In this document: one piece after another, positions 4,305 through 50,881 of the stretch
How the letters are laid out: the number at the start of each line of letters is the position of its first letter
How positions within the stretch are numbered: the first letter of the stretch is position 1
From: a virus
Reading direction: 5' to 3' (one strand)
IMG/VR virus record: IMGVR_UViG_3300017971_000214
Span: 32,001-96,000 of that record
Length of the DNA stretch: 64,000 nucleotides
The notes under the pieces: model-generated
The model's input: only the letters and a program-made list of their open reading frames with translations
Databases searched by the model: none
What the model was told of the DNA's origin: nothing
Translations under genes and position numbers: made by a program

Positions 4305-4347
4305 AGTATTAGAAGCCCAGAAGAAGGGCACGAAAGAGAAGGCAGAG

Positions 4348-4626: not shown

Positions 4627-4787
4627 TGCAGCTGACCGAAAAGCAGAAGCAGGCCATCGAAGACTGGGTGTTCGAAATCAGTGCCAAGGGGCTCATCGAG
4701 ACCGGCGAGTTCGGCGACGACTTTCGCGAAGCCGAGGCTGCGATCCTCCAGTACGTGAAGGAGCTGAAAGAGAAGGCCCTGCGATGA
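4626..4787 (+). CDS. small hypothetical protein (53 aa)
   Basis: TGATG overlap upstream and ATGA overlap downstream; MQLTEKQKQAIEDW...; below the ORF-track cutoff. Confidence 0.6.
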   Translation: MQLTEKQKQAIEDWVFEISAKGLIETGEFGDDFREAEAAILQYVKELKEKALR

Positions 4788-5053: not shown

Positions 5054-5066
5054 GGAGACCAACATC

Positions 5067-5495: not shown

Positions 5496-5509
5496 AGAGG
5501 ATCAAGTCG

Positions 5510-6121
5510 ATGGGAGACAGAAAGGTACGCGACACTTCTACGAAGGAAGAAGCCACCATAGTGATGATCGACGCCGCGTTGGGAGGGAACAGCGGCGATG
5601 CCATCGAGCGCCAGGAAGCTCGGGGGCAGCAGGACTTCGTGAACAGCACGCAGCTTCCGGTGAAGGGAAGCAACGACGAGGCGTTCACCAAGATGGGAAT
5701 CAGGTTCGGCGTCGCTGTCGAAGGCGAGCTGTTCCGCCACGCCGACCTACCCGAATGTTGGTCCAAGCAACCTACGGAGCATTCAATGTGGTCGAAGCTC
5801 GTTGACCGGAACGGCAACGAGCGAGCTGAGATCTTCTACAAGGCCGCGTTCTACGACCGTCGCGCGCATATGCGTGCCTGTCGCCGGTTCAGTGTCCGGC
5901 ACGACTACGAATACGAGAACAAGAACGAGGGCGAGCTGCGGATCTGCGTGTTCGACATGTGGGGTGGCAAGGAGACGGTGGTCTTCACTGCCGAGGACTC
6001 CTTCACCAAGCGCGAGGAGCGCTGGGAGAAGGACGACGGTCTGACGAATCAGTGCAAGGCGTGGTTGGTGGAGAACTACCCCGAGTGGGAAGACGCGAGC
6101 GCCTGCTGGGACAAGGAGTAG
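5510..6121 (+). CDS. hypothetical phage protein
   Basis: SD GAGG; DRNGNERAEIFYKAAFYDRRA motif typical of phage hypotheticals. Confidence 0.75.
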   Translation: MGDRKVRDTSTKEEATIVMIDAALGGNSGDAIERQEARGQQDFVNSTQLPVKGSNDEAFTKMGIRFGVAVEGELFRHADLPECWSKQPTEHSMWSKLVDRNGNERAEIFYKAAFYDRRAHMRACRRFSVRHDYEYENKNEGELRICVFDMWGGKETVVFTAEDSFTKREERWEKDDGLTNQCKAWLVENYPEWEDASACWDKE

Positions 6122-6127
6122 CGGGCC

Positions 6128-6799
6128 GTGTGGGAGCTAGACGACTACCACAAGGGGCCTCCCCTGAAGCTGCACGAGCTGCGTGACTTGGAGGACGGGG
6201 AGGTCGTGTGGGTCGTCTACTACGACTTCACGTCTGATGGTGGGAGGGAGCCAAAGATCGACGGCCCCTCGCGCATCGAGGACCAGGGGGACGGCTTCAC
6301 GTGGCTGCTCGACGAAGCTGGCTGTGAGTTCGCCATGGAAGGTGAAGACGACGAGGAGTGCTTCGACGACGGGGGCGATGGCTCGGGCGAGATGCGTCTG
6401 TACAAGGCCGTACTCGGCAAGAAGAACGCCGACATCAAGATCTACAAGTACGCGCTGGCGCTCTCTGACGGTGCGTCTCCCGTCTGCATCGTGCAGATGC
6501 CCGAAGGGGCGCGGGTGCTGAAGGTTGCCGCAGCTACGGTGACGACGGGGTTGCCTCCGGACGGTTACCCCCGTGACGAAGAGCGCATGTTCCTCTGGGC
6601 TGCGGTAGACCCCGCCGCGCCTCCAGTGAACCGCGAGTTCGAGGTCTACCCCACGGGGCTTACCAGCTTGCAACCTCCAGTAGACGAGCTGATGCACCTG
6701 GACACTGTGCTGATGCACAACGGCACGCTGGTCTTTCACGTGTTCGAGCGTGATCCCGAAACAGCCGCGCTGATGCGGGAGGCCAAGGCATTGCGATGA
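6128..6799 (+). CDS. two-domain hypothetical phage protein
   Basis: C-terminal KIYKY..MPEGARVL..LWAAVDP..PTG..LVFHVFE domain common in phage accessory genes. Confidence 0.7.
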   Translation: MWELDDYHKGPPLKLHELRDLEDGEVVWVVYYDFTSDGGREPKIDGPSRIEDQGDGFTWLLDEAGCEFAMEGEDDEECFDDGGDGSGEMRLYKAVLGKKNADIKIYKYALALSDGASPVCIVQMPEGARVLKVAAATVTTGLPPDGYPRDEERMFLWAAVDPAAPPVNREFEVYPTGLTSLQPPVDELMHLDTVLMHNGTLVFHVFERDPETAALMREAKALR

Positions 6800-8184: not shown

Positions 8185-8428
8185 GTGGATCATACGCAAC
8201 GAGCTGGCGGAGCTAAGAGGTACTGCCGCCATGACTCGGAGGTTCTTCCACTCGTGGCGTTCGGGCGCGCGGCTGTGGGAGCGGTACGCCCACTACTTGG
8301 AAGAGAAGTACGACTTGGACGAGGACTTCAACGACTTCTTTTGGACACTCTCTTCCGAAGAGCGCAGGGACCCGGCGTCTTCGGACTACGTACCAGGGTT
8401 CACACCAAGGAGAAGCGAGAGAAAGTGA
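8159..8428 (+). CDS. hypothetical protein
   Basis: ORF coupled by GTGA to the ADP-ribosylglycohydrolase. Confidence 0.55.
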   Translation: MMVLKILARWIIRNELAELRGTAAMTRRFFHSWRSGARLWERYAHYLEEKYDLDEDFNDFFWTLSSEERRDPASSDYVPGFTPRRSERK

Positions 8429-9453
8429 ACGACAAGATCAAAGGTTCGATCGTTGGGCTCGCCTGCGGCGATGCTCTGGGGGCTCCCGTGGAGTTCCTGA
8501 ATCAGACGGAGCTGATCACTCGGTACGGCTCGGACGGTATCAGAGATCTCGAAGAGTCCTACGGAGTGGAGGGCGCGTACACCGACGACACGCAGATGAC
8601 CCTCTCAACTGCGGAGGGTGTCGTGGCGGCACGTACTGCAGAGGGGGATGGCATCAACGTCGACCCGGTGCCCTACATCTACGGGGCTTACATCGAGTGG
8701 CGCCGGGGCCAGCTCGACCACGCCAACAATCGCGGGCCGGGCAACACCTGCCTGAGTGCCCTTTCCGGGGGCGTAGCGGGGTCCTCAGCAGCCCCGGTGA
8801 ACAACAGCAAGGGTTGCGGTGGGGTCATGCGCGTCGCCCCTGTGGGGCTCGTCTACAGCGGTACACGGGCTTGGAAGTACGGGCTCGAAAGCGCCGCGTT
8901 GACGCACGGGCATGAGGGGGGATTCTTGCCAGCAGCCTTCCAGGCGCTGATGCTATCCAGAATCATGTCCGCGCCGGAGAAGGAAGCGCCGGCCAAGACG
9001 ATCACGGAGGCTGTGGGGGCGGCGATGAACATGCTCGAACGCTCCCCGAGAAGCGAAGACCGCGACACCTTCGCGGCGATGGTCACGCAGGCAATGAACT
9101 TGCACCGGCAGACCAAGTGGTCCGACGAGATGGTGCTGCGGAAGCTCGGCGCCGGATGGGTAGGCGATGAAGCATTGGCCATGTCGATCTTCTGCGCCAT
9201 GCGCTACCCCAACAGCTTCGAAGGCGCAGTCACCTCCGCGGTCAACTACTCCGGAGACCGGGACTCGGTGGGGTGCATCACGGGCGCCATCATGGGGGCG
9301 CTGCTGGGCTACTCTTCGATACCTGAACGCTGGGCGGCCAAGGTCGAGAACTACGACCTGCTCGTGTCCGTAGCCGAACAGCTCTCCGAAGCGCGCATCG
9401 AGCCCCCGCGTCGCCCTCAACCCCATCCTCCAAAGACGGTAGGCATCGACTAG
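8425..9453 (+). CDS. ADP-ribosylglycohydrolase (DraG/ARH family)
   Basis: GLACGDALG, YTDDTQM, NSKGCGGVMR, THGH and NYSGDRDS motifs; GTG start at 8425. Confidence 0.92.
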   Translation: MNDKIKGSIVGLACGDALGAPVEFLNQTELITRYGSDGIRDLEESYGVEGAYTDDTQMTLSTAEGVVAARTAEGDGINVDPVPYIYGAYIEWRRGQLDHANNRGPGNTCLSALSGGVAGSSAAPVNNSKGCGGVMRVAPVGLVYSGTRAWKYGLESAALTHGHEGGFLPAAFQALMLSRIMSAPEKEAPAKTITEAVGAAMNMLERSPRSEDRDTFAAMVTQAMNLHRQTKWSDEMVLRKLGAGWVGDEALAMSIFCAMRYPNSFEGAVTSAVNYSGDRDSVGCITGAIMGALLGYSSIPERWAAKVENYDLLVSVAEQLSEARIEPPRRPQPHPPKTVGID

Positions 9454-15188: not shown

Positions 15189-15217
15189 AAAGGTCGATCT
15201 TCGGGTCGGCCTTTTTT
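15189..15217 (+). terminator. rho-independent terminator
   Basis: AAAGGTCGATC-TTCG-GGTCGGCCTTT stem-loop ending in a T-run. Confidence 0.8.
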
Positions 15218-15226
15218 GATCTTCCT

Positions 15227-15256
15227 GTTGACAATCCTTTTCCTATGTGATATTGT
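15227..15256 (+). promoter_or_regulatory. strong sigma70 promoter (copy 2 of the shared motif)
   Basis: TTGACA-17bp-TATTGT; GTTGACAATC.....CCTATGTGATA shared with 4275. Confidence 0.75.
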
Positions 15257-15287
15257 TTTTACGTACCCTGGGAGAAGGACAGAGCAG

Positions 15288-18071
15288 ATGGGACGAAAAG
15301 CATGGGCGAATCGGCGGAGCGGAACCTGCGAGGCGTGCGGCACTTCGGTGGCGGCGCAGGCCGGCTGGGTGTACCGGGACGATGCGGGTTCCTGGAAGGT
15401 GTGCTGCAAGAGCGCGGTGTGCGGGACGCAGCTCGGCCTCGCTGGGGCGGCCCCCGAGGCGGCGGAGACGCGGGAGCTGACGGCGGACGGTCGCGTACTG
15501 ATGCCCTACGAGAAAGCAGCGCTCCCCTTGCTGCGGGCGATGCCGGGCGCGCGGTTCGACCGTGACGCCTCCCCGAAGTGTTGGCGCGTGTCACTGGATC
15601 CCGGTGACCGGGACCGGCTCTTGGAGCTAGCGGACGAGCTGAAGCTCGCCGTGGCCCCCGAGCTGCGCACCGTGTCGGAGGACATCGAAGCGTTGTCCAA
15701 GCAGCTCATCGCGGACGGCCTGTACCCCTTCCAGGTGAAGGGCGTGTGTTGGTTGCGGCAGCGACGCCGCGCGTTGCTCGGCGACTCGATGGGACTAGGA
15801 AAAACCATCCAAGTCTTGTTTGCCCTACCCCATCCAAAGGGGTACGGTAAGAATCATGCCGAGAGGAGTGTATCCGAGAACGTCAAATCAGCTCAGAGCC
15901 GCCAAGGAGAATCTAGCCAAGGGGCGGCAGCCGAATGCTCGGCGAAAAGCAAAAGCGACGATGCGGAAGACAGCTCAGACGCCGGAGTGGCGCGCAAAGG
16001 TAAGCGAGGCCACGCGTCGTGCGATGCAGCGTCCCGAAGTGCGAGAGAAGCATCTCAAAGGTCTGAAGGGGAATCCAGTAGGATTCAAGGGGGGAAACGG
16101 ACAGCCTCCAGTTCCGATAGTCGAGTTGGCGGCCATTTTTCTGGAGCCTCTGGGGTTCGTGAGGGAGCTACCAATACGGACGAAAGGCCACGGAACGGAG
16201 TTGCGAGCACCGACACACTACAAGGCAGATTTAGGCCAGCCGGAACTGAAGATCGTAGTGGAACTGGACGGTCCGAGTCATTGGAACAAGCGCCAGCAGG
16301 ACAAGGATCGGAAGAAGACCGAAATCCTGGAAGCACTGGGTTGGACGGTGATCCGCATCCAGCACGGGCGATCGTCATCTGCCCGGCGAGTCTCAAGCTG
16401 AACTGGCGCGACGAGTGCAAGCGGTGGCGTCCGGGCCTGAAGCCTGTCGTGCTCTCGGGTCGCGGCAGCTTCCGGCACCCCGAAGCTGGAGAGGTCATCA
16501 TCACGAACTACGACATCTTGCCGAAGCTACCCCGCTGCACCTGCAAGGCGCACGGTCAGCTGAAGTACGTATCGGGCACCTGGGAGTGGGTGTGCGAGAA
16601 GTGCTCCAAGAAGAGCAACGCCACGGTGACCATCAAGGCCGACCCCGTGCTCGACCTCTCGGGCAAGGGGATCGTCGTGGTCGCCGACGAGTCCACCGCG
16701 GTCAAGAACTTCAAGGCCATCCGGTCCAAGGTCTTCAAGGCGCTCGCCGTCACCGCCGACAAGGTGTGGCAGCTGTCGGGCACCCCGATGCTCAACCGCC
16801 CGTTTGACCTCTACGGGATGCTCCAGTCCGGAGACATGGCCTACGAGGTGTTCGGTGGCTGGAGGTCCTTCCTCCGCTGCTTCAACGGCTACAAGAACCG
16901 GTGGGGCGGCTACGAGTTCGGCGAGCCTCTTCCCGAGACCCCTGAGCGCCTGCGCCGTGTGATGCTGCGCCGGCTCAAGACCGAGGTGCTGACTGATCTC
17001 CCTGAGGTCACCTACCAGACCCTCACCGTCAACAGTCTCGACAAGGGCCTGAAGGCGGAGCTGGACGCCGCGTGGAGCGCCTGGAACGACGAGGCCGAAG
17101 CACTCGACGGGCTCGCCGATGGTGCCCCCGCAGACCTTCCTCCCTTCGAGCAGTTCTCGAAGCTGCGCGCGAAGCTCGCTGCCAGCCGCATCAACGCGAT
17201 GCTTGATCTGGTCGAGCAGTACGAGGACAACGAGCAGCCGCTCATCGTCTTCTCCGCGCATCGCGCCCCCATCGACACCTTGGCCAAGCGCGAGGGGTGG
17301 GCCGTCATCACCGGCGACACCAACGCTGAGGCCCGCAACGAGGCCGTCAAGCGCTTCCAGAGCGGCGAGCTGAAGGGCATCGGCCTGACCATCAAGGCCG
17401 GCGGCTACGGGCTCACGCTGACCCGCGGCAGCCACCTTCTGTTCGTCGACCTCGAATGGACCCCCTCCGCCAACGCGCAGGCAGAGGACCGGGCTCGTCG
17501 TATCGGGCAGACCGCCGACTCGATTCAGGTCACCCGCATGGTCTCCGACCACCCGCTCGACCAGCACGTCCTACGGCTTCTCGCTGAGAAGACCGCCATG
17601 ATCTTCAAGGCTGTCGAAGCCGAGGTGCAGTACAAGCGGGCGCCCAAGCCCAAAACCGCCCAGCCCAGCGGTTGGGTGCAGGAGAGCGACGCGGACCAGC
17701 AGGCGCGCAAGGATGCCATCGAGCAGGCCGCCAAGGAGGCCGAGAAGGCTCAGGCGCAGAAGCGCATCGACAAGATCATCCTCCAGGAAAAGGACCGTCA
17801 GGGCACCGCTCCGGGCGAGACCTTGGAGCTGACCTCCGAAGTCCGCCAGGCTCTCACCGATGCCTTCTACTTCATGAAGAGCGTCTGCGATGGCGCGCAG
17901 GAGAAGGACGGCCAAGGGTTCTCCAAGCCCGACGTCTACCGCACCGCGTTCCTCGCATCGTGGATGGACACCGGAGAGGAGACCGCGTTCCGCGCGGCGG
18001 CCATGATCCTCTGCCGCTACAGGCGGCAGCTCGGCAAGCAGTTCCCCATCCTTTTCAAGAAGGCGGCTTGA
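15288..18071 (+). CDS. SNF2/SWI2-family (HARP-like) helicase with a 175-codon in-frame insertion
   Basis: GDSMGLGKT, CPASLKLNW, VADES, LSGTP, GYGLTL and QAEDRARRIGQ motifs; low-complexity insert between motifs I and Ia. Confidence 0.9.
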   Translation: MGRKAWANRRSGTCEACGTSVAAQAGWVYRDDAGSWKVCCKSAVCGTQLGLAGAAPEAAETRELTADGRVLMPYEKAALPLLRAMPGARFDRDASPKCWRVSLDPGDRDRLLELADELKLAVAPELRTVSEDIEALSKQLIADGLYPFQVKGVCWLRQRRRALLGDSMGLGKTIQVLFALPHPKGYGKNHAERSVSENVKSAQSRQGESSQGAAAECSAKSKSDDAEDSSDAGVARKGKRGHASCDAASRSAREASQRSEGESSRIQGGKRTASSSDSRVGGHFSGASGVREGATNTDERPRNGVASTDTLQGRFRPAGTEDRSGTGRSESLEQAPAGQGSEEDRNPGSTGLDGDPHPARAIVICPASLKLNWRDECKRWRPGLKPVVLSGRGSFRHPEAGEVIITNYDILPKLPRCTCKAHGQLKYVSGTWEWVCEKCSKKSNATVTIKADPVLDLSGKGIVVVADESTAVKNFKAIRSKVFKALAVTADKVWQLSGTPMLNRPFDLYGMLQSGDMAYEVFGGWRSFLRCFNGYKNRWGGYEFGEPLPETPERLRRVMLRRLKTEVLTDLPEVTYQTLTVNSLDKGLKAELDAAWSAWNDEAEALDGLADGAPADLPPFEQFSKLRAKLAASRINAMLDLVEQYEDNEQPLIVFSAHRAPIDTLAKREGWAVITGDTNAEARNEAVKRFQSGELKGIGLTIKAGGYGLTLTRGSHLLFVDLEWTPSANAQAEDRARRIGQTADSIQVTRMVSDHPLDQHVLRLLAEKTAMIFKAVEAEVQYKRAPKPKTAQPSGWVQESDADQQARKDAIEQAAKEAEKAQAQKRIDKIILQEKDRQGTAPGETLELTSEVRQALTDAFYFMKSVCDGAQEKDGQGFSKPDVYRTAFLASWMDTGEETAFRAAAMILCRYRRQLGKQFPILFKKAA
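15820..15848 (+). promoter_or_regulatory. internal promoter for the nested endonuclease
   Basis: TTGCCC-17bp-TACGGT, 7 nt to ATG 15856; same geometry as other leaderless promoters in the window. Confidence 0.6.
15856..16401 (+). CDS. nested +1-frame Vsr/DUF559-like endonuclease with NUMOD3-like basic helices
   Basis: YKADLG..LKIVVELDGPSH...DRKKTEILEALGWTVIRI; PEWRAKVSEA/PEVREKH helices. Confidence 0.85.
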   Translation: MPRGVYPRTSNQLRAAKENLAKGRQPNARRKAKATMRKTAQTPEWRAKVSEATRRAMQRPEVREKHLKGLKGNPVGFKGGNGQPPVPIVELAAIFLEPLGFVRELPIRTKGHGTELRAPTHYKADLGQPELKIVVELDGPSHWNKRQQDKDRKKTEILEALGWTVIRIQHGRSSSARRVSS

Positions 18072-28271: not shown

Positions 28272-28481
28272 ATGAGAGACGGCAGTGGAAGCAACGATTT
28301 CGAGATCTCGGTGGAGGTACTGGTGGAAGGGCGAAACGCCATCAAGGTGCTGACCGAGCATGGCGACGAGGCGTGGATACCTCACTCCCAAATCCGCCAG
28401 GGGTCGGACGTGGAAAGCAGCGGGGACGAGGGCGTGCTCATCATACCGATGTGGCTAGCTCGCAAAGAAGGCTGGGCGTAG
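28272..28481 (+). CDS. small conserved phage protein
   Basis: AI.V..EAWIP.SQI..L.IP.WLA..G motif. Confidence 0.7.
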   Translation: MRDGSGSNDFEISVEVLVEGRNAIKVLTEHGDEAWIPHSQIRQGSDVESSGDEGVLIIPMWLARKEGWA

Positions 28482-28490
28482 GCGCCACGC

Positions 28491-28519
28491 TTTACAATAG
28501 GCAGCACACTTGGTAACTT
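28491..28519 (+). promoter_or_regulatory. sigma70 promoter of the AAA/vWA operon
   Basis: TTTACA-17bp-TAACTT; SD GGAGG before ATG 28545. Confidence 0.55.
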
Positions 28520-28544
28520 CGGAGCACGAAAAACTGGAGGAGAG

Positions 28545-30632
28545 ATGACAGAGCTGAGCATCCAGCGCATGGGCTCGGGTGAGTTCGAGCCCAAAGCCGG
28601 CCTGATCTACAAAGACGTATTCGACCTGATGAGCCTGTACGAAGGGCTCGCGTTCCGGGCGCCGACCATCGTGGTTGGCCCGAAAGGCATCGGCAAGACC
28701 CTGAGCATCCAGGCGTTCGCGGCGCAGCAGGACTGTCCCATCGTGACGTTCGACTGCTCGGAGGATGTTCGTCGCCAGCACTTGATCGGCATCTTCGTTC
28801 TGCGTGGGCAGGAGACTCCGTTCGTCCTGGGGCCGCTGACGACGGCGTTCGAGGTCGCCAACGAGGTGGGGCAGTGCATCCTGTGTTTGGAGGAGATCAA
28901 CTGTCTCTACCCCACCACTACCGTCTTGGTCCCCTCTGGCGAAGAAGTTCCGATCGAGCGGCTGCGGTTGGGAGATCCTGTTGTTGGATTCGATCCTGCG
29001 GGCGGTCAGTGTTTAGCGCATGTGGTAGAAACCCGGTATCAACGCGCTGACTCCTCATATACAATAGAAGCCGGTGAGGAAATCATCAAAGCCAGCGAAA
29101 ACCACCTCTTTTGGACAAGGAGGGGGTGGGTCCCCGCGAAGTTCCTCCAAGAAGGGGACGAAGTCCTTCGTGTGTGCGAAGTGTGGTTGCCGCAAAAAGG
29201 ACCTGAGGTCTCTTCGGGCGCACGAACGGATGGCTCACGGGAAGAATCCGATGAAGAATCCGGAATGCGTCGTGAAGGTTCACACGGCGGCTCGGAACGA
29301 GAAGATTTCAAAAGCCGCAACAGCGCGGTGGAAGGACCCGGAGTACCGGGAGACGATGAGCGAGTTTCTACGGGAGTTGCGTCCCATGGACAACCCCAAG
29401 GTGAGATCAAAGATGTCCGAAACCCAGAGGCTTCGGATGCTTTCGGAATGGAGGGATCCGAAAAAGAGAGAACGTCGCTTGGAGAGTTGTCGGACGCCGG
29501 AGTTCCGAGAGACTGCGGCGAAAGGGGGAAAGAAGACCGCTGCGTTCTGGAGGTCCCCAGAAGGAAGAAAGATAGCTTCGATGCGCTCCAAGAAGCTCTG
29601 GGCGGACGAGAGACACCGGAAGCTCATGTCCGAAAAGCGAAAACAGCATCTACTGGATCATCCAGACAAGAAGATACAGTTCGTACATGCGGGATGGAAC
29701 GCTCAACGCCCAACGAAGTTGGAACGTCGGGCCATAGAGATTCTAGTCGACCTTCCAGTCTTCTACACAGGGGACGGAACGAGATGGATCACTACACCCA
29801 AAGGGCGACATTTGAATCCGGACTTTTCGGTGGAAGGCAAGAAAGTGATTCTTGTGGATGGGGACTACTGGCACCCACCGAATCAGAAGAGGTCAGAGAC
29901 TTTGGCCTACAAGAGCGCGGGATTCTCAGTTCTTCGCTTGTCGGAAGACCAAGTGAAGAACCATCCAGCACTTGTGCTAAAGCGGGTCCAGAAATTCCTC
30001 TCTGGGTAACCGTTCGAAGAGTCACCCGAAATCTTGAGGCTACTCCTCTGTGCGAAATCGGCCTTACTGGTCCTCACACTTACTTTGCTTCGGGGCTCGG
30101 AACGCACAACTCACTGACACCCCAGATGCAGAAGGTGCTCAACGCCCCAACCGACTGGCGGCAACGCATCGAGGTGCCGGAAGCTCGGAAGGTGTTCCGG
30201 TTGGAGAAGGGCAAGAAGATTTGGGTAACGGGGACGATGAACACTGCGGTATACGGCGGCGTGTACCAGCTCAACGAAGACCTGAAGAGTCGCATGAGGC
30301 TCGTTGCGCTTACCTACCCGAAGTCCTCCAAGGAGAAGGAGATCATCGCCGCGGTCCTCTCCGACACGTCTCTGGATCAGTCGGTAGTCGACCGGGTGAT
30401 TCTCCTTGCGCACGAGACTCGACAGCAGTCGTTGGAGTACGCGCTCAGTACACGCGACGTCGTGCAGTTGCTGGAGGACATCGCGGCTATGGATTTGACC
30501 AGGGCGCTGCGCATCGTACTCGGCAAGTTCGACGACACCGACCGGGACACGGTGGCAGAGAGAATCCAAAGCATCTTCGGCGTGAGCTTCGATCAGACCT
30601 CGCGGCGTCGCGGGGCTGCAGCGAGGGCGTGA
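28545..30632 (+). CDS. MoxR/CbbQ-type AAA+ ATPase containing an intein
   Basis: Walker A GPKGIGKT, Walker B ILCLEEIN, TMN..Y.G...LNEDLKSR, STR. Confidence 0.88.
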   Translation: MTELSIQRMGSGEFEPKAGLIYKDVFDLMSLYEGLAFRAPTIVVGPKGIGKTLSIQAFAAQQDCPIVTFDCSEDVRRQHLIGIFVLRGQETPFVLGPLTTAFEVANEVGQCILCLEEINCLYPTTTVLVPSGEEVPIERLRLGDPVVGFDPAGGQCLAHVVETRYQRADSSYTIEAGEEIIKASENHLFWTRRGWVPAKFLQEGDEVLRVCEVWLPQKGPEVSSGARTDGSREESDEESGMRREGSHGGSEREDFKSRNSAVEGPGVPGDDERVSTGVASHGQPQGEIKDVRNPEASDAFGMEGSEKERTSLGELSDAGVPRDCGERGKEDRCVLEVPRRKKDSFDALQEALGGRETPEAHVRKAKTASTGSSRQEDTVRTCGMERSTPNEVGTSGHRDSSRPSSLLHRGRNEMDHYTQRATFESGLFGGRQESDSCGWGLLAPTESEEVRDFGLQERGILSSSLVGRPSEEPSSTCAKAGPEIPLWVTVRRVTRNLEATPLCEIGLTGPHTYFASGLGTHNSLTPQMQKVLNAPTDWRQRIEVPEARKVFRLEKGKKIWVTGTMNTAVYGGVYQLNEDLKSRMRLVALTYPKSSKEKEIIAAVLSDTSLDQSVVDRVILLAHETRQQSLEYALSTRDVVQLLEDIAAMDLTRALRIVLGKFDDTDRDTVAERIQSIFGVSFDQTSRRRGAAARA
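28902..30110 (+). mobile_element. intein (403 aa) whose endonuclease is encoded out of frame
   Basis: CLYPTT.V block A, ASENHLFW block B, HTYFASGLGTHN end with +1 Ser; middle ~280 aa is low-complexity in the intein frame. Confidence 0.85.
29074..30009 (+). CDS. nested +1-frame endonuclease: C2H2 finger + NUMOD3-like helices + Vsr/DUF559-like domain (start uncertain, 29074 or 29170)
   Basis: CAKC..H....H; WKDPEYRE-type repeats; PTKLE..NPDF..KKVILVDGDYWH..YKSAGFSVLRL. Confidence 0.85.
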   Translation: MRKSSKPAKTTSFGQGGGGSPRSSSKKGTKSFVCAKCGCRKKDLRSLRAHERMAHGKNPMKNPECVVKVHTAARNEKISKAATARWKDPEYRETMSEFLRELRPMDNPKVRSKMSETQRLRMLSEWRDPKKRERRLESCRTPEFRETAAKGGKKTAAFWRSPEGRKIASMRSKKLWADERHRKLMSEKRKQHLLDHPDKKIQFVHAGWNAQRPTKLERRAIEILVDLPVFYTGDGTRWITTPKGRHLNPDFSVEGKKVILVDGDYWHPPNQKRSETLAYKSAGFSVLRLSEDQVKNHPALVLKRVQKFLSG

Positions 30633-30633
30633 G

Positions 30634-32775
30634 GTGCGGACTCCTTTTTCTCCCCCCGCGGACCCGCTAGCTGCGGCGATGTCGGAAGAGGCTGAGTCCG
30701 CCGACACGTTGGCGGACTTACGTCGGTACTCGGTGCTCAAGTCGGTGGCCTACAAGACCGTCGACATGTTCTCCGGCATCACCAAGCGGCGCTTGTGGCT
30801 GAAGGACGGCTCCTTCGTGGGGACAGACGGGAACGAGATCAGAGTTCCCTTCTCCGATCCGGACTTCTACCAGCTGGTGGAGCGCCAGCTCGCCCACGTC
30901 CTGTTTCGCTCGGACGCCAAGGCCAAGAAGGTGTTCGTCCGGGACTACTCGATGAAGGTGGCGGAGGTAGCCAAGAAGATGGGGGTCGAGCTGAACGCCG
31001 GCCACCTTCAGGGAGCCATCGGCCACATCATCACGGTTCTGGAGAAGCGCCGCGTCACCTCCCTGTGGGGGATCTTGTATCCCGGCAGCCACCAGCTACT
31101 GAAGGAGATCGACCAGGAGTCCGTCGCAGAGCTGATGAATGAAGCGCACGGGAGCCTACTCGCCTATCTGACCTGTTTGGAAGGCGACGGAGCGTCGGTC
31201 GGTGCGGGGGAGATGGATCGATTCCGGCCCTACATCGAGGAAGCCTTCCGGAAGGTGCACAAGCGGGGGTTCTCGGCGACGCTTTCGATCTCCAAGTGGC
31301 TCGTGATGCAGTTCGTCAACGAGATCATCCGAGAGCTGAAGGACATCCCACCCCCTCCCCCGCCCATGCCTACGCCCCAAGGGCAGCCCGGCTCTGCTGG
31401 AAGCTCCGGCGAGAACGATTCAGAGAGGGAGGAAGGTGACGACTGCGACTGCGACGCCCCGAAGGCTGGGGGCAGCTCGGAGGGATCCGGAGAAGAAGGC
31501 GATGAAGGCTCCCAGGAGCCCTCTGAAGGCGACGATGGGGAGGGGGAGGGCGACGCCCCCGACGAAGGCGACGAAGGGCAGGAAGGGGCCTCAGAGGGGG
31601 AAGAAGACGGGGATGGGGATGCCCCCTGGAACCCGCCGCCTCCGCCGGCTACCGGGGCCGAGCGTACCCAGGCGCTGAAAGATCTGATCGACAAGCTGGG
31701 GAAGGCCCCCGAGCAGGTGAAGGACACAATGCTGGAGTCCAAGTTCACCAAGTCTCGGCACTCGCCTAAGGCGCAGGCGCTTGCTTCGCAGGCGTTGAAG
31801 GCGGACGTGAACAACCCGGACAAGTTCGAGGACAGCCTGGATGACTCCGAGCAGGAGATGGAGGACATCCTGGATGCGGCTCTCCGAGCCATGCGCCAGA
31901 AGATGCACCACGACGAGTGGTTGCAGAAAGATGCGATGGCGAAGATCAGCTTCGTCGACAAGGAGGATCAGAAGCACGCCCGGCAGCCCATGAGCTTCGA
32001 GGACCAGCAGACGGTCAACCGTCTGCGCGCGATGTTCCACCGCGTGATGGGCAAGCGCAAGAGCGTGCTGGAGTACGAAGGCACGGAGATCGACGTGAGC
32101 GCCTACATCGAGCGCATGACCACAGGGCTTCCTGTGCCGTGCTTTCGATCGGAGGGCACGGGACGAGGGTTCAAGGCCCTGTTGTTGCTGGACCGATCGA
32201 GTTCGATGGGTGGTGCCAAGACGCAGCAGTGCGAGAGGGCGGGTCGAATCATACGGAGGGCGTTGGAGTTCCCTTTCGTGGAGACCACGGTGTGGGGCTT
32301 CAGCTCGAACGAGCCGGGGCAGATCTCGCTCATCCGGCACAACTCACGCGCCGACGTCGAGCTGCGGGAGGGGGAACGAGGGTCGGGAGGTTCGACGCCG
32401 CTGCACGTGGCTGTTCGTCTGGGGGTACGCGAGCTGGAGCGGGGGACCGAGAGCAAGCAGCTTTTCGTCCTGACCGATGGCTTTCCTACGCACGCTAAGC
32501 GCAACGGGAAGATCTTCGCTACCGAGCAGCTGATGCTGTTTGTCCGCGACGAAGTGCGGAAGGCGCGGAGTAAGGGGATCAACGTCACTTGTGTCTTGGT
32601 GGGCGCACCGGACTGGAGAAAGCCCGACCAGATCCACTACGACATGTCCCCAAAGCAACTTTCCTATATGTTCGGCCCTCGTCGCAACTGGCGTCAGATG
32701 GACCCCGAGCGTGTCGGCAGCGATCTAGTTCACCTTGTTGCCACGAGCTTCGTGGACTTTCTGAAGCGGGGGTAG
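30634..32775 (+). CDS. vWA-domain protein, partner of the MoxR ATPase
   Basis: MIDAS residues LLDRSSSM, STP, VLTDG; long acidic linker; N-terminal metallopeptidase-like LAH region. Confidence 0.85.
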   Translation: MRTPFSPPADPLAAAMSEEAESADTLADLRRYSVLKSVAYKTVDMFSGITKRRLWLKDGSFVGTDGNEIRVPFSDPDFYQLVERQLAHVLFRSDAKAKKVFVRDYSMKVAEVAKKMGVELNAGHLQGAIGHIITVLEKRRVTSLWGILYPGSHQLLKEIDQESVAELMNEAHGSLLAYLTCLEGDGASVGAGEMDRFRPYIEEAFRKVHKRGFSATLSISKWLVMQFVNEIIRELKDIPPPPPPMPTPQGQPGSAGSSGENDSEREEGDDCDCDAPKAGGSSEGSGEEGDEGSQEPSEGDDGEGEGDAPDEGDEGQEGASEGEEDGDGDAPWNPPPPPATGAERTQALKDLIDKLGKAPEQVKDTMLESKFTKSRHSPKAQALASQALKADVNNPDKFEDSLDDSEQEMEDILDAALRAMRQKMHHDEWLQKDAMAKISFVDKEDQKHARQPMSFEDQQTVNRLRAMFHRVMGKRKSVLEYEGTEIDVSAYIERMTTGLPVPCFRSEGTGRGFKALLLLDRSSSMGGAKTQQCERAGRIIRRALEFPFVETTVWGFSSNEPGQISLIRHNSRADVELREGERGSGGSTPLHVAVRLGVRELERGTESKQLFVLTDGFPTHAKRNGKIFATEQLMLFVRDEVRKARSKGINVTCVLVGAPDWRKPDQIHYDMSPKQLSYMFGPRRNWRQMDPERVGSDLVHLVATSFVDFLKRG

Positions 32776-40879: not shown

Positions 40880-43456
40880 GTGGGCGTTGATCTCGACAAA
40901 GGACTGGTTGCATCCATACTCCGCGATGGCCCCGACGCTTTGAAGGTCGTGAGGGAGTTCGGGATTGACGGCAGCCTTTTGGTAGATCCGGGGCGCAAGT
41001 TGTTCGACTTCGTCGAGCACTACTTTCGGCAGTATGGCCAGCTCCCCACGCCCGAGCTGCTGGTATCGAAGTTCGAGAAGGGCTCTCTTCCCGACGTGAA
41101 GGATCCAATTGAGTACTTCATCTTGGAGATCCGCGGCAGGAAACTGCAGAACGATCTGAAGGGCCGCGTCTACCCGTTCATGAAGATGCTCGAAGACGGG
41201 CAGAAACCCTTCGAGGCTCTAGACGAACTGGACATTCTGATCCGTGGTCTGCGTCAGGCTCACGAGATCACACGGGCTCAAGCCGAGAGCGTGCCGAAGC
41301 TGTGGCCTGAGGTGATGGATCTCTACGACCGGGTGAAGGGCGGGGAGAAGGGCATTCTCACCCCGTGGCCTACGGTGAACAACGAGACGCTAGGCTTCTG
41401 GCCTGAAGACCTCGCGCTGTTCGCGGCCCGGCTCGGCATAGGCAAGTGCGTAGCCGAGGATACGGAGATCGTAGACCCAGAGACAGGTGTTCCGCATACC
41501 ATCCACGAGGTGTGTGAGAGAGAAGATCTCAGGAAGGTGTTCACTTGGAGCAAGGAGCGGGGGGTTCACGCTGCGCGGATAACGGCCAAGGTAGACACGG
41601 GAGTAAAACCCTGTCTGCGGTTCCGCTTTGCGTCTGGTCGCGAGGTCACTGTGACGCCGGAGCACCCTTTTCTGACCTCAGCTGGTTGGGAACCAGCGGC
41701 GGACTTGGTTGTGGGGGCTTCTGTGGGCCTTCCGGCTCGGGTGCCGTTCCCCGAGAGCCCCGAGCAGCTGCTTCCAGAGGCGGTTGATCTCCTCGCACTC
41801 CTGTTGGCGGAAGGGAGCTATAGCGGGAAGCACGTTGGGGTCTCTAGCGATGATGACGTATTGTTGTCGATCGCTAGTCGAGCGTCTGACGCTTTCGGAG
41901 TAGATCTGAAGTACCGCTCGGGAGTCGACTACGATTTCGTCCGGCGGGAGAAGTCAGGCCCCAACCATGTGAGGACGTTTCTACGCTCTCACGATATGGA
42001 CGGGAAGAAGGCCGTAGACAAGATTATCCCAGAAGCCGTGTTTGGTCTCCCTTCCGATCAGCTAGCTCGGTTCCTCGGGCTGTTCTGGATGTGTGACGGG
42101 TACGTAGATGGCACCGGTCCTGGCGTGACGCTTGCCTCCGAGAAGATGGTTCAGCAGCTCCAACATCTTCTCCTCCGTTTTGGGATTCATAGTAGTGTTG
42201 ATCCAAAGAAGGCTACGTGTGAGGGGCGTGTATTCAACGCGTGGCGTCTCAGGGTGTACGCTTCCTCTTGGCCTGTGTTCTTGGCCGCTATTCCGCTGTG
42301 GGGTAGCAAGCGAGAGCGGTTGGAGGAGTTGGAGAGCCTGGACCGAAATCCTAACATCGGCTTCCCCAGGGTTTCAGGGGAGTTCAAGGCGCATCTTTTG
42401 GGATTGGTACGGAAGAGAGAAAACCATGGGAAGCTGAAACAGGTTGGCGAGCGCCTTGGCTGGTCCAGCTATTTCATGTTCCGCAGCCTGTTCGGGAAGG
42501 GCGACACTTTGTTGCTTCGGCGCTTCGCGGTGTTCTGCGAAGTATTTGGGCTGGAAAGGGAGTTCGGTTGGTTGTGGGACAGTGAGATTTTCTGGGACTC
42601 TGTGGAGTCTATCGAGGACGTCGGCCCTACCAAGATCTATGACCTCACTGTCGAGCCTTCTGCGTGTTTCTTGGCCAATGACGTGATCGTTCACAACACG
42701 TGGGCGGCGGCCATCATCGCTCATCACGCGTGGGCCGTGGGCGGCCACAAGGTGCTGTTCGGAACGACGGAGATCTCCAAGATTCGCATCGCCATGCGCT
42801 TCGCGGCGATCCACTTCAAACTCCCCTACCGTGAGATTCGCCTCGGGAAGCTCGACGCCTTCAACGAGAAGAAGATGCGCGATGGCATCAAAGACATCAT
42901 GGATGCCGAGGGGCTGTACGTCATCGGCGGGGACTTCGACTTCCGCGTGGAGTCCTACGAGAACGCCGTCGAAGAGGTGGCGCCCGAGCTGTCGATCTTG
43001 GACGGAGCCTATTTGCTCAAGACGCAGGGGCAAACCAGGACCGAGCGCGCTGCCAACGCCTTCGACGAGCTGAAGCGAATTTGCAAGCGCACGAAGTGCC
43101 CGAGCATCGTCACCATGCAGTTCAACCGCGAGGTGAAGGCAGGCTCCAAGGCCACGGCAGACGCCGGCAACATCGCGCTGACCGACGTCGCTGGCTGGAA
43201 CGCCGATCTCGCCTACGGACTGATCCAGTCCGAGGACATGAAGAAGGACCGCCGTATGATCTTCAAGCCCTTGAAGGTCCGTGAAGGCGAGGGCGAGGAG
43301 TTCGAGGTCAATTGGGACATCGACAAGGTGAACTTCACCGAGCTGCCGAAGCTGGGTGGCGGCGGGGGTGGAGCCGATGATGATGACGATCCGTTCGGTG
43401 CTGGAGTGAACGGCACGGGCGCCAGCTCGGGCGGTTCGGACGAGGTGCCTTTCTAG
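40880..43456 (+). CDS. dnaB: DnaB-like replicative helicase containing an intein
   Basis: AARLGIGK|T Walker A, ILDGAYL, MQFNRE, LKVREG. Confidence 0.88.
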   Translation: MGVDLDKGLVASILRDGPDALKVVREFGIDGSLLVDPGRKLFDFVEHYFRQYGQLPTPELLVSKFEKGSLPDVKDPIEYFILEIRGRKLQNDLKGRVYPFMKMLEDGQKPFEALDELDILIRGLRQAHEITRAQAESVPKLWPEVMDLYDRVKGGEKGILTPWPTVNNETLGFWPEDLALFAARLGIGKCVAEDTEIVDPETGVPHTIHEVCEREDLRKVFTWSKERGVHAARITAKVDTGVKPCLRFRFASGREVTVTPEHPFLTSAGWEPAADLVVGASVGLPARVPFPESPEQLLPEAVDLLALLLAEGSYSGKHVGVSSDDDVLLSIASRASDAFGVDLKYRSGVDYDFVRREKSGPNHVRTFLRSHDMDGKKAVDKIIPEAVFGLPSDQLARFLGLFWMCDGYVDGTGPGVTLASEKMVQQLQHLLLRFGIHSSVDPKKATCEGRVFNAWRLRVYASSWPVFLAAIPLWGSKRERLEELESLDRNPNIGFPRVSGEFKAHLLGLVRKRENHGKLKQVGERLGWSSYFMFRSLFGKGDTLLLRRFAVFCEVFGLEREFGWLWDSEIFWDSVESIEDVGPTKIYDLTVEPSACFLANDVIVHNTWAAAIIAHHAWAVGGHKVLFGTTEISKIRIAMRFAAIHFKLPYREIRLGKLDAFNEKKMRDGIKDIMDAEGLYVIGGDFDFRVESYENAVEEVAPELSILDGAYLLKTQGQTRTERAANAFDELKRICKRTKCPSIVTMQFNREVKAGSKATADAGNIALTDVAGWNADLAYGLIQSEDMKKDRRMIFKPLKVREGEGEEFEVNWDIDKVNFTELPKLGGGGGGADDDDDPFGAGVNGTGASSGGSDEVPF
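41447..42697 (+). mobile_element. intein (417 aa) with LAGLIDADG endonuclease, in the DnaB Walker A
   Basis: CVAEDT start, VTPEHPF, LLLAEG, FLGLFWMCDG, IYDLTVE..IVHN end, +1 Thr. Confidence 0.92.
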
Positions 43457-48290: not shown

Positions 48291-48641
48291 ATGTCGAAGA
48301 AGAACGCGGTGCAGCCCACCGTCGTAACGGTGAGGCGTCAGTTTCTGGAGGGTGGGGAGCCCGCGAGCCTTCCTGAAGAGAAGACCGAAGTGATCGAAGT
48401 CCACCGCTTCGTCGTCGAACCCGCGAAGGTCCAGGTCGGTCGGGGCCTTACCTTGAACATGGGCAACTACGAGTCTGCTCGCTTGGATGTGGGCATCGAG
48501 GTCCCCTGCTACGTCGAAGAAGTCGACTCTGCTTACGAGTGGGCGCGCCGCTGGGTCGAGAAGCGTATCGGTGAGGAGCACAAGTCGATCAAGGGGCACG
48601 TTGACAAGAAGAAGTCTGGGTCGGAGGAGAACCCGTTCTGA
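48291..48641 (+). CDS. conserved phage hypothetical protein
   Basis: TLNMGNYESARLDV motif; ends EENPF. Confidence 0.7.
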   Translation: MSKKNAVQPTVVTVRRQFLEGGEPASLPEEKTEVIEVHRFVVEPAKVQVGRGLTLNMGNYESARLDVGIEVPCYVEEVDSAYEWARRWVEKRIGEEHKSIKGHVDKKKSGSEENPF

Positions 48642-50881
48642 TGGCCAAGAAGAAGGACAACAAGCCCGGCGTGGAACTCGCGTCCTCGTTGGACAAGCTG
48701 CTTGCCAGCAAGGCCATGGCATCCATCCACAAGGATCACGGGGACGCCATCTTCATGAAGGCGTCCGAGCATGACTCGGCTATCCCTCGGATCCCAACGG
48801 GGGTTTTCAGGATGGACTACGCCACCGGAGGCGGCCTCCCCGTGGGGCGCGTCACGGTGATTTGGGGGCACAAGTCGAGTGCCAAGACGACCACCTATCT
48901 GAAGACCATCGCCAACGCGCAGAAGATGTGCGCGAGCTGCTGGCAATTTCAGGAAACGTGCAACTGCGGGAACTACAGGGATCCCGTCATCGCGTTCCTC
49001 GATGTGGAGGGAACACTCGACCTTCGGTGGGCCAAGGTGCTCGGTGTAGATCTGGACCGGATGCTCTACTCCAAACCGGAGTACGCCGAGCAGACGCTCG
49101 ACATTGCGGAGGCCATCATACGCAACGGTGCCGACATCATGGTCATCGACTCGCTCGCGTTCCTAGCGCCTGCAGCAGAGATCATGAAGTCGACGAGCGA
49201 GGACACAGTGGGACTGCAAGCGCGCCAGCTCGGCAAGGGCACGCGCAAGTTCGTTGCGGCCGTCAACACTGTGTCCAACGCTCGTGGTATCGGCCCCACG
49301 TTGTTCTTCACCAATCAGGTTCGCATGAAGGTTGGTGTCATGTTCGGCTGCTTCCCCTACCAGGCTCCCGTCCTACTGGCAGACGGAACCAAACGAAGTA
49401 TCGGTCAGATCGTCAATCAGAAGCAGCCTGTGGAGGTACTGAGTTGGAATGCACACGAAAAGAGATTTGAGCCCAAGCGGGTGGTCCGCTGGTGGAAGCA
49501 AGGGGTTGATGTAGACGAATGCTGTCTGTCGGACAACGACATCGGGGCGCTACGTCAGGAGTACCGCACTCTTGTTGTGTCGTATCCGGATGGCAGCGGT
49601 CACACCAAGATCACCGCTACTCCGAATCATGAGATATCGACGCCGCGTGGGTTCGTTTCTGCCGACACGCTCGACTTGGACGACGAGGTATATTGCCGAC
49701 ATGAGCGTGTGGTATTCAGCCACGACTTGGAGCAGTTGATCTTCGGCTCGCTGCTCGGCGACGGGTCGATCAGGAAATCGGGAAGGCATACTTCGTACTT
49801 CCGAGAGTCCCACGCTCAGAAAGAGCGCCAGTACTTGATGTGGAAGCGCGAATGCTTTGGCGACTTGGTTCGCGAGAGCCTGACCGACAGAGACGACGAG
49901 AGATCAGAGGTAGGTTTCGAGACGAGGGCTCTGTCTTCCTTTTCTCAGTACAAGCGGTTGTTCTACGGGGAGTCCGGTAGGTACAAGCGGATTCCTCGGT
50001 CGTGGCCGATGGTTCTTTCTCCGTTTGCTCTGGCCATTTGGTATCAGGACGATGGTTGGCTGGCAGACGAAGGCGGCACGAGAAAGCGCAACGTGATTTG
50101 CCTCCACGAGACTACGCCGGATGAAAAGGATCACATCAAGAAATTGATCGAGGGGCTATTCGGACTGCAGGTCGCAGTGTGCTCCGGCGGCCATCGCACT
50201 GATATCCAGTTCAACGGGGAGGTAGCGGACAAATTCGAGAAGATAGTGGCTGGTTGGGTTCATCCCAGCATGTCGCACAAGCTGCGGACAACTGCCGGTG
50301 TGGGTCAGCTGCTGCCTCGACTCGAATTTGGGTGGTGCACTGAGGTTGTTGCTCATCCGTGTCCTGTTGTTGAGATCCGAAGGTCTATGCGAGAGGGATC
50401 TTCTGGAGTCCGGTACAACTTGGAGGTGGAGGATAACGCCACCTACGTTGTTGGAGATGCCATCGTCCACAATTCGCCCGAGACGCAGCCCGGCGGTCTG
50501 TCGACCGGCTTTGCTTCTTCGCTGGAGATCAAGACCAGGGCGGGCAAGTTCGAGATGGACGAGGTGCTAGGAAAGCCTCTTACTGCGGGCTTCGCGTTTC
50601 GCGTCGAGAAGAACAAGGCCGGCGTGCCTAAGATGGAGGGCGACTTCAAGCTGCTGCTGATGAGCACGGAGCACCGGCGTGTTGGGGATGCGGTCAACGA
50701 GCCCTTCATGGTCGACATGGCGCAGAAGGTCGGGCTCGTGGAAGGCGGCGGTTCCTCGTGGAAGGCGCTCGGAGAGAAGTTCAAGTCCAAGACCGCCATC
50801 GAGGAAGCAATGATCCAGAGCCCCGACTTCTACCTGCGCATGCACAGCGCTTTGATGGCTGTGCTGCTGTCGGATGACTAG
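48641..50881 (+). CDS. recA: RecA-like recombinase containing an intein
   Basis: IPTG..D...GGLP.GR, FLDVEG, VIDSLA, NQVRMKVGVMFG|SPETQPGG. Confidence 0.9.
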   Translation: MAKKKDNKPGVELASSLDKLLASKAMASIHKDHGDAIFMKASEHDSAIPRIPTGVFRMDYATGGGLPVGRVTVIWGHKSSAKTTTYLKTIANAQKMCASCWQFQETCNCGNYRDPVIAFLDVEGTLDLRWAKVLGVDLDRMLYSKPEYAEQTLDIAEAIIRNGADIMVIDSLAFLAPAAEIMKSTSEDTVGLQARQLGKGTRKFVAAVNTVSNARGIGPTLFFTNQVRMKVGVMFGCFPYQAPVLLADGTKRSIGQIVNQKQPVEVLSWNAHEKRFEPKRVVRWWKQGVDVDECCLSDNDIGALRQEYRTLVVSYPDGSGHTKITATPNHEISTPRGFVSADTLDLDDEVYCRHERVVFSHDLEQLIFGSLLGDGSIRKSGRHTSYFRESHAQKERQYLMWKRECFGDLVRESLTDRDDERSEVGFETRALSSFSQYKRLFYGESGRYKRIPRSWPMVLSPFALAIWYQDDGWLADEGGTRKRNVICLHETTPDEKDHIKKLIEGLFGLQVAVCSGGHRTDIQFNGEVADKFEKIVAGWVHPSMSHKLRTTAGVGQLLPRLEFGWCTEVVAHPCPVVEIRRSMREGSSGVRYNLEVEDNATYVVGDAIVHNSPETQPGGLSTGFASSLEIKTRAGKFEMDEVLGKPLTAGFAFRVEKNKAGVPKMEGDFKLLLMSTEHRRVGDAVNEPFMVDMAQKVGLVEGGGSSWKALGEKFKSKTAIEEAMIQSPDFYLRMHSALMAVLLSDD
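49349..50473 (+). mobile_element. intein (375 aa) with LAGLIDADG endonuclease, at the RecA MFG/SPET site
   Basis: CFPYQAPV start, ATPNH, GSLLGDG, IWYQDDG, YNLEVE..IVHN end, +1 Ser. Confidence 0.92.

Follow-up and report, generated by a model that had tools for sequence, protein, structure and literature searches.

A probable dual-coding intein in a phage MoxR/NorQ-type ATPase gene, with a Vsr-like endonuclease encoded in the +1 frame

Inteins whose endonuclease is encoded outside the reading frame of the host protein have been described in two recent studies, and they provide the closest parallels to the locus considered here, an intein-containing ATPase gene in bases 32001-96000 of viral record IMGVR_UViG_3300017971_000214 (126,260 bases in total); this stretch of 64,000 nucleotides is referred to below as the window. 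Gosselin, Arsenault and Gogarten (2025, bioRxiv 10.1101/2025.01.02.630785) described actinophage inteins with an EndoVII-like homing endonuclease (HEN) in frame 3 or with VSR-like and LAGLIDADG HENs on the antisense strand, and argued that the arrangement originates when an intein is invaded by a free-standing endonuclease gene. Phillips, DeSimone and Gogarten (2026, bioRxiv 10.64898/2026.09.14.751524) described a cyanobacterial dnaX intein with a LAGLIDADG open reading frame (ORF) in the +2 frame and frame-dependent selection. Both papers cite Gorbalenya 1998, which Phillips et al. credit. Dassa et al. (2009, PMC2677866) described “fractured genes”, in which the halves of a split intein are separated by a free-standing endonuclease gene of Vsr-like or GIY-YIG type. 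The EDxHD family of homing endonucleases was named by Taylor et al. (2011, PMC3239194), whose study characterised I-Bth0305I. A further 2025 study (PMC11855218) described the ShiLan-type hidden-endonuclease insertion, in which an endonuclease ORF is overprinted on a stop-free host ORF and there is no intein.

The ORF at 28545..30632 on the plus strand of the window is stop-free throughout and carries the host gene plus the intein in a single frame of 695 amino acids. Its two ends match Pfam AAA_5 (E 1e-10) and superpose, in an AlphaFold model, on MoxR-type ATPases of the NorQ/CbbQ kind (best Foldseek match 9qhd_C, E 1.7e-6); the host gene encodes a MoxR/NorQ-like AAA+ ATPase. The insertion point lies right after the Walker B motif (CLEEIN|), and the boundary residues C120 ... 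H521 N522 | S523 provide the class-1 nucleophile, the His-Asn pair and a Ser at +1. The consensus motif of intein block B is TxxH; it reads SENH in the window, SGNH in a second copy of the element in viral locus L007, and SMDH and TPEH in the database proteins P0009 and P0122 (L-numbers denote viral loci and P-numbers database proteins), with the His conserved and Ser in place of Thr in three of the four sequences. The exteins have a GC content at third codon positions (GC3) of 0.81-0.87, against about 0.5 for the intein, whose composition is thus foreign; in the middle of the intein GC3 is highest in the frame of the nuclease described below (0.635). A first-pass annotation made from the sequence had proposed an unsplit AAA+ intein with both splicing regions in one open frame, and all the sequence features it named were found where it had placed them. 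We consider it highly probable that this is an unsplit class-1 intein at the Walker B site of a phage ATPase whose endonuclease is a separate gene laid in the +1 frame over the central ~790 nt.

Structure prediction supports an intein with an unfolded centre. In an AlphaFold2 (AF2) model of the precursor, built from 43 aligned sequences, the exteins are confident and residues 125-220 and 486-507 are rich in beta structure. The strands of the N-terminal splicing region have a pLDDT (predicted score of the local distance difference test) of about 62-89 up to residue about 220, and residues 221-483 fall below 50 with no secondary structure. Foldseek searches with the beta-rich part matched a bacterial intein-like (BIL) domain (2lwy, E 3.2e-5), the DnaB intein (6bs8, E 1e-4) and gp41-1 (6qaz, E 1.8e-4), with further matches to the DnaX intein and to the Mtu RecA intein (2in0, E 7.5e-4), and phmmer related the N-terminal splicing region to the same BIL domain, 2lwy (E 0.002). 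The model thus predicts that the N- and C-terminal regions of the intein form a HINT fold. An insertion of this kind might instead be an RNA-level element, that is, a group I or group II intron with a free-standing endonuclease gene; Vsr-like endonucleases do occur in recA group I introns (Dassa et al. 2009; Taylor et al. 2011). However, no Rfam family reached its gathering score anywhere in the window, which argues that no group I intron is present, and the insertion starts with Cys, ends with His-Asn followed by Ser, and is flanked by the predicted HINT-fold halves. An intron, moreover, would not need an open host frame. An RNA-level explanation is accordingly given next to no probability.

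The product of the overlapping +1 ORF is an endonuclease of the EDxHD/Vsr-like family, as judged by profile and predicted fold. It scores 22.5 bits against Pfam DUF559 (cut-off 20.6, E 1.1e-4) and matches Pfam Vsr at E 2.3e-3, and the ORF carries NPDF...VILVDGDYWH. With a profile of 41 relatives of the nuclease, matches were obtained to I-Bth0305I (3r3p, E 8.5e-16) and to Vsr (1cw0, E 2.7e-11); in that alignment E217, D250 and H267 are invariant in all 41 sequences, and D262 and E291 are present in 39. The AF2 model of the product (41 sequences) has a mean pLDDT of 80.2, with 132 residues at or above 90, and consists of the hairpin and helix of the finger, an extended stretch of helices (residues 72-223) and an alpha/beta domain; the nuclease has W-x-D-P-E-x-R-type helical repeats. 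A Foldseek search of the Protein Data Bank (PDB) with this model placed 3r3p_B at rank 1 (E 6.2e-4, TMt 0.67, 27% identity) and Vsr 1cw0 at rank 3. The CxxC...HxxxxH segment matches classical C2H2 zinc fingers (phmmer against PDB zinc fingers, 2i13, E 2.4e-6), and its four ligands are invariant in a pair alignment with the database homologue P0004 and present in the L007 product too. No Pfam match to a NUMOD family was obtained in the nuclease. These domain matches bear out the first-pass call of a separate +1 Vsr/DUF559-type endonuclease ORF with a C2H2 finger. A profile scan of both frames, which that annotation had proposed, gave a split result: DUF559 was detected above its cut-off in one frame, and Hint and intein models stayed below theirs in the other.

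Evidence that the two frames coexist by selection came from a shuffle test, in which synonymous codons were permuted 20000 times with no change to the amino-acid sequence or codon usage of the nuclease. Over the nuclease ORF the host frame contains no stop codon, where about 11.5 are expected; the shuffled sequences had a mode of 12 stops and a range of 2-22, and a stop-free host frame arose in none of the 20000 shuffles. The third frame of the same region contains 13 stops. In the converse test, with host-frame codons shuffled, 653 of the 20000 sequences had an open +1 frame; the striking feature is thus that the host frame is open. The same test applied to L007 again produced no stop-free host frame in 20000 shuffles (mode 8 stops). 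The host frame over the nuclease ORF is held open by selection.

The second copy was found with a two-sequence alignment query; a scan of viral contigs with the single nuclease protein had given nothing. It occurs in loci L006 and L007, which belong to the same phage as L004/L005 and L056/L057, and since the gene sequence of L006 and L007 is identical over 2049 nt they are counted as one lineage. The L007 ATPase ORF (4460..6508, 682 amino acids) has no stop; its intein occupies the same site and is 402 codons long (CIHPSS...THN|S), and the +1 nuclease ORF (5040..5912, 290 amino acids) starts with ATG. The nuclease is 57% identical to that of the window in the best tblastn segment and 58% identical over aligned codons. 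The first-pass annotation had suggested searching phage inteins for off-frame nested nucleases, and the same layout was recovered in a second phage lineage.

Comparison of this one pair, the window against L007, revealed substitution patterns that depend on the frame. In the two exteins the differences per host-frame codon position are 0.27/0.21/0.66 and 0.30/0.19/0.51, and in the splicing blocks they are 0.40/0.22/0.58 (N) and 0.24/0.19/0.73 (C). In the middle of the intein the values are 0.61/0.36/0.30 when counted in the host frame and 0.35/0.30/0.60 in the nuclease frame. Differences in the middle thus peak at the third position of the nuclease frame, and this part of the intein evolves in the manner of a nuclease gene. 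Amino-acid identity follows the same division, at 65-66% in the exteins (66% in the C-extein), 51% (N) and 73% (C) in the splicing blocks, and, in the middle, 58% in the nuclease frame against 28% in the host frame. The host frame in the middle is apparently merely kept stop-free, with no further conservation. Shuffles and substitution pattern therefore agree with the earlier proposal of a dual-coding intein, with a host frame stop-free beyond chance and the nuclease in the +1 frame.

These data also bear on the possibility that two compensating indels, introduced in sequencing or assembly, displaced an endonuclease domain that had been in frame in the ordinary way. Assembled from a metagenome, the record has a depth of about 9, and the comparison between runs was made on contigs: the stretch is present in Logan contigs of two runs, with 0 differences and 0 gaps in each, and this counts weakly against an artefact, as the runs may be the source or one data set twice. 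However, an artefactual host frame would be untranslated, and about 11.5 stops would be expected where none is seen. The L006/L007 copy has the same offset, and its nuclease has its own start after a Shine-Dalgarno (SD) sequence. The stop-free host frame and the frame-dependent substitution pattern together effectively exclude compensating indel errors, and an artefact is considered extremely improbable.

How the nuclease would be expressed is clearer in L007 than in the window. In L007 a GAGG lies 8 nt upstream of the nuclease ATG, and it aligns with an SD-like AAGGAGG inside the intein ORF of the window (Table 1), with a spacing in agreement with other genes of the window's phage. MPKTS is the N-terminus of the L007 product and also of P0004, for which only the protein sequence was compared, and in each it starts 12 residues ahead of the first Cys. 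In the database the gene was called as P0003 (252 amino acids), which begins at a non-conserved Met and leaves out the finger. Comparison of the two loci suggests that the conserved expression signal is the SD sequence, followed in L007 by ATG. In the window, the in-frame starts that are left are GTG 29074 and GTG 29170, the latter one codon before the first Cys of the finger. The window copy lacks the ATG of its relatives, so the nuclease may start at GTG 29074 or GTG 29170, or may be poorly expressed. The first-pass annotation had drawn attention to a TACAAT at 29060-29065, 8 nt before GTG 29074, as a near-consensus -10 element; its position was confirmed and its role as a promoter was not, a consensus scan having returned no sigma-70-like promoter in 28400..30700. 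The hexamer also lies within intein coding sequence, and L007 reads TACACT. An RNA hairpin masking the ribosome-binding site was likewise rejected, as the 11-bp stem that pairs AAGGAGG has a z-score of -0.39, which is not significant, and the L007 equivalent folds differently (z -0.90, not significant).

The position of the start is relevant to a further explanation, in which programmed ribosomal frameshifting into the +1 frame and back would produce the nuclease within the precursor. This would account for there being no canonical start at the conserved position in the window, and the nuclease ORF is open upstream into the N-terminal block of the intein. In L007, however, the nuclease frame has a stop 15 codons before the ATG (the open span begins at 4995), so a fusion is impossible there. 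No slippery sequence or shift signal was seen, though none was looked for, and a host frame that is open throughout favours straight read-through. Frameshifting is therefore regarded as very unlikely, and independent translation of a separate +1 gene remains the preferred reading.

Several observations weigh against a functional dual-coding intein. Only two DNA lineages of the element were examined, and they probably share it by descent. The Pfam intein and Hint models fell below their cut-offs (PT-HINT 21.1 bits against 27.7, Hint_2 16.4 against 28.4, Intein_splicing 13.4 against 35.8); the intein sequence appears to be too diverged for these profiles. In the nuclease, the Glu of “IEVDG” is kept in 36 of 41 relatives and is Leu in the clade of the window's nuclease, and the final Asp of the EDxHD motif is unaligned, Glu275 being one residue off in all three clade members in a region where the alignment is uncertain. 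A CCG codon stands at the position of the L007 ATG, and GTG 29074 is without an evident ribosome-binding site. The comparison between runs was one of assembled contigs, possibly of the source data. Lastly, splicing, nuclease expression, cleavage and homing are predictions from sequence and models.

Some of the same observations would be expected of a decaying canonical intein, in which a once in-frame endonuclease slipped out of frame and is now a dead remnant in the loop of a mini-intein. The window copy lacks the ATG found in its relatives, and it has Leu for the Glu of “IEVDG”. The presence of CCG at 29134..29136 despite the retained AAGGAGG perhaps reflects early decay of the endonuclease or a shift to the upstream GTG. 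In P0009, the host-frame linker is ~90 residues shorter, and the missing part overlaps the catalytic domain of the nuclease in the window; decay therefore does occur in the family, and P0009 may be a copy in which the endonuclease has been deleted and the frame is still open. On the other hand, the nuclease has an unbroken ORF of 311 codons in the window and 290 in L007, its substitutions are biased towards third positions at 58% identity, E217, D250 and H267 are retained in a confident predicted fold, and L007 has a ribosome-binding site and an ATG. Decay is an unlikely account of the two loci compared here.

Table 1. Features of the ATPase-intein locus and its downstream neighbour (window coordinates)
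Feature	Position (strand)	Details
N-extein	28545..28901 (+)	Walker A GPKGIGKT; terminates in Walker B region CLEEIN; AF2 pLDDT about 90-98; GC3 0.87
Intein, class 1	28902..30110 (+)	residues 120-522, 403 codons; Cys1 ... His-Asn then Ser+1
N-terminal splicing region	28902..29204 (+)	block A CLYPTT, block B ...ASENHLFW
Overlapping +1 ORF	29074..30009 (+)	homing-endonuclease gene; 311 codons from GTG 29074, true start uncertain
SD-like AAGGAGG	29117..29123 (+)	inside intein ORF; aligns with L007 GAGG
CCG codon	29134..29136 (+)	at position of L007 nuclease ATG (DNA alignment)
C2H2 zinc finger of nuclease	29173..29238 (+)	ligands C34, C37, H50, H55
Host-frame linker	29205..29993 (+)	residues 221-483; stop-free, apparently otherwise unconserved
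EDxHD/Vsr-like catalytic domain	29707..30006 (+)	E217, D250, D262, H267, E291
C-terminal splicing region	29994..30110 (+)	WVTVRRV ... HTYFASGLGTHN; AF2 strands 486-507
C-extein	30111..30632 (+)	SLTPQMQKVLN ...; GC3 0.81
Downstream gene	30634..32775 (+)	C-terminal VWA domain; Pfam VWA_2 E 4.6e-5, VWA E 5.2e-4, both under cut-off

A mechanism consistent with the dual-coding reading can be proposed. Ribosomes would translate the host frame, for which both openness and selection were observed, straight through. The HINT halves are predicted by the model to fold round a disordered linker of ~263 residues, and the 403-residue intein would then be spliced out to restore ...CLEEIN-SLTPQ...; we infer splicing because C1, SxxH, HN and S+1 are intact and the exteins are under purifying selection. 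The nuclease would be translated independently from an internal ribosome-binding site, a signal that is present in L007. It would then cut intein-less alleles at the conserved sequence GAGGAGATCAAC|GCN CTN ACN CCN CAG, and repair would copy the whole element into the cut allele. The nuclease ORF ends, in both the window and L007, with a TAA that falls among the codons for the conserved WVTV in the C-terminal block of the intein. The element probably originated when a free-standing endonuclease gene invaded a mini-intein, following the models of Dassa et al. (2009) and Gosselin et al. (2025).

The distribution of the intein among related ATPases is as expected for a mobile element, the closest allele being empty and a more distant one occupied. 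A full-library search returned 865 relatives of the precursor at E <= 0.001. The best match, P0008, is 85% identical and 292 amino acids long (695 - 403), reads ...CLEEINALTPQ... and lacks exactly the intein. Among 31 viral loci with a related ATPase the insertion is present only in L056/L057; the site is uninterrupted in 25 of the 29 others and was not located by pattern in the remaining four. Around the empty insertion site the DNA of the 25 located loci is highly conserved; 16 of them have Ala at +1, 8 have Gly and 1 has Ser, as against Ser in both intein alleles (window and L007). Inteins at the same site also occur in P0009 (604 amino acids), in P0011 (a fragment) and in P0122 (685 amino acids, a more distant ATPase); they have similar low-complexity middles and Cys at +1. 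In six other relatives of the ATPase (P0012, P0025, P0044, P0073, P0111 and P0015) large in-frame inteins of LAGLIDADG type occupy two further sites, one after GTMN, where the inserts are LAGLIDADG-like, and the other inside the Walker A region, which makes three intein sites in total within one small phage ATPase family.

The first-pass annotation had also proposed a possible intermediate between mini-intein invasion and intein splitting, an idea for which no support was obtained, and had suggested looking for related split versions. None turned up: no split relative was found at this site, and none of 38 candidates among shorter database proteins matched the N-extein plus N-intein half at E <= 0.01. 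Two short proteins, P0026 (200 amino acids, on a 64-kb contig) and P0158 (226 amino acids), start at the C-terminal intein block. P0158 is on a contig of 3818 bases, which is also the length of the contig of P0004, the third homologue of the nuclease. Both proteins can be accounted for as products of dual-coding loci cut short in gene calling; software that allows no long overlaps between genes would yield exactly such pieces. Annotation pipelines thus break such loci, leaving a nuclease fragment (P0003) or C-terminal pieces labelled “MoxR-like ATPase” (P0026, P0158), and surveys of inteins consequently overlook such elements or record them as mini-inteins or as inteins in decay.

Relatives of the nuclease are found in several settings: free-standing, in frame within inteins, antisense to them, and in the sense +1 frame. 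In L026, a large partial ORF (1..3543) has two inteins; the first has a middle of odd, hydrophobic composition with a complete antisense Vsr-like ORF (319..1161, minus), and the second has an in-frame Vsr-like domain (IAVEVDGAYWH). In L013, a 755-aa ORF (3921..6188, minus) contains an intein, CFPAF...LVHNC, and a Cys-rich Vsr-like nuclease ORF of 281 amino acids (4359..5204, plus) lies opposite the middle of that intein. The idea that such nuclease genes are pre-adapted, “transparent” sequences was rejected, since in 48 of 50 viral loci of relatives no same-strand frame spans the nuclease ORF; measured about the midpoint of that ORF, the spans are 0-219 amino acids.

A second overprinted nuclease is found in the window itself, in a SNF2 helicase gene (15216..18071) with a 525-bp insert between SNF2 motifs I and Ia. 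On either side of the insert is one copy of an imperfect direct repeat of 9 nt (CCCCATCCA at 15828-15836, CCGCATCCA at 16353-16361), and no intein blocks were found in the insert. Its +1 ORF (15820..16401, probable ATG at 15856) matches DUF559 at E 3e-9 and continues beyond the insert through 40 nt of host codons. Over the insert there is no stop in the host frame, an outcome seen in 5 of 20000 shuffles, and GC3 drops from about 0.85-0.9 in the gene to 0.36-0.56 in the insert. No relatives of the SNF2 gene were found in the L006/L007 records or, by single-protein patterns, in viral contigs. The first-pass annotation had linked this insert to the ATPase intein through a shared +1 offset and a shared nuclease family. 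The offset is indeed common to both, but the nucleases share only the DUF559 superfamily; close kinship was rejected on a BLASTP comparison (E 0.57, 23% identity). The broader suggestion of one family of elements specialising in overprinting also failed, on this distance and on the scarcity of spanning same-strand frames among the relatives.

A more general version of the idea is that Vsr/DUF559-type genes in this phage lineage settle in coding DNA as “frame-transparent” cassettes, with the dual-coding intein as a stable third outcome of endonuclease invasion beside in-frame fusion and gene fracture. We regard this as doubtful. If it were true, the read-through peptide would be spliced out in the intein and simply tolerated as a loop in the SNF2 protein, and the dual-coding state could be a source of split inteins at the site, or could revert.

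Other features of the window complete the setting. The gene that follows the ATPase may encode its NorD-like partner, as NorD-type partners end in a VWA domain; L007 has the same order of ATPase and VWA genes, and P0014 is a fused form. Conventional inteins with in-frame LAGLIDADG endonucleases are present in a DnaB-like helicase gene (40880..43456) and in RecA (48641..50881), so that at least four genes in the window have been invaded (DnaB-like helicase, RecA, ATPase and SNF2). The window also contains an ADP-ribosylglycohydrolase-family gene (8185..9453, E 8.5e-65) and an ORF of 2244 amino acids (57035..63769).

The layout is a rare one already on record, and it opens no new category; the first-pass annotation had presented it as unprecedented, but inteins with out-of-frame or opposite-strand endonucleases are in print in the papers of Gosselin et al. 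(2025) and Phillips et al. (2026). In the literature covered, no same-strand overlapping Vsr-like HEN and no intein in a MoxR-like ATPase was found, although published supplementary tables may hold cases of either. What may be new is the combination of a same-strand +1 Vsr-like nuclease with a MoxR/NorQ-type ATPase. To the class described recently the locus contributes a Vsr-like/EDxHD case on the same strand, together with a new host protein cut at the Walker B site, and the availability of an empty allele at 85% identity and a second copy at 58% identity makes splicing, internal initiation and homing directly testable. It also bears on how free-standing endonuclease genes join inteins, and on why some of these invasions fracture genes and others do not.

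Parallels with the inteins of Gosselin et al. (2025) are close: in each case the intein is contiguous, the host frame runs through an unstructured stretch, and the endonuclease occupies another, overlapping ORF, and a long stretch of helices and a match to 3R3P (EDxHD) are likewise features of the VSR-like HEN of that study. There, however, the VSR-like HENs are antisense and the same-strand case is EndoVII-like, whereas the nuclease described here is VSR-like with a C2H2 finger and lies in the sense +1 frame; the inteins there lie in DNA polymerase, minor capsid, terminase and thymidylate synthase, and here in a MoxR-like ATPase of an uncultured phage. The dnaX intein of Phillips et al. (2026) shares with this locus the same-strand overlap, the disordered host segment set against a folded alternative-frame product, frame-dependent selection, an SD sequence before the internal ORF, and the co-existence of intein-free alleles. 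It differs in having a LAGLIDADG endonuclease in the +2 frame of a bacterial chromosomal gene, as opposed to a Vsr-like one in the +1 frame of a phage gene.

Comparison with the remaining systems separates the features that are shared from those specific to this locus. I-Bth0305I has the same catalytic fold with conserved E, D and H, an N-terminal DNA-binding region before the C-terminal nuclease domain, and an identical D-to-H spacing of 17 residues (D196-H213 there, D250-H267 here). It is, however, a group I intron endonuclease with NUMOD-like motifs (Taylor et al. 2011), while the present nuclease is overprinted on an intein and carries a C2H2 finger and helical repeats. The ShiLan-type insertion (PMC11855218) is the closest match to the SNF2 insert of the window, and the ATPase element differs from it in having complete splicing blocks. 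In the fractured genes of Dassa et al. (2009), as here, the 3' end of the nuclease gene overlaps the coding region of the C-terminal intein part. The fractured genes have a stop after the N-half, a spacer of 27-51 nt before the nuclease gene and a separate start for the C-half, in contrast to the one uninterrupted ORF that spans the ATPase and its intein in the window.

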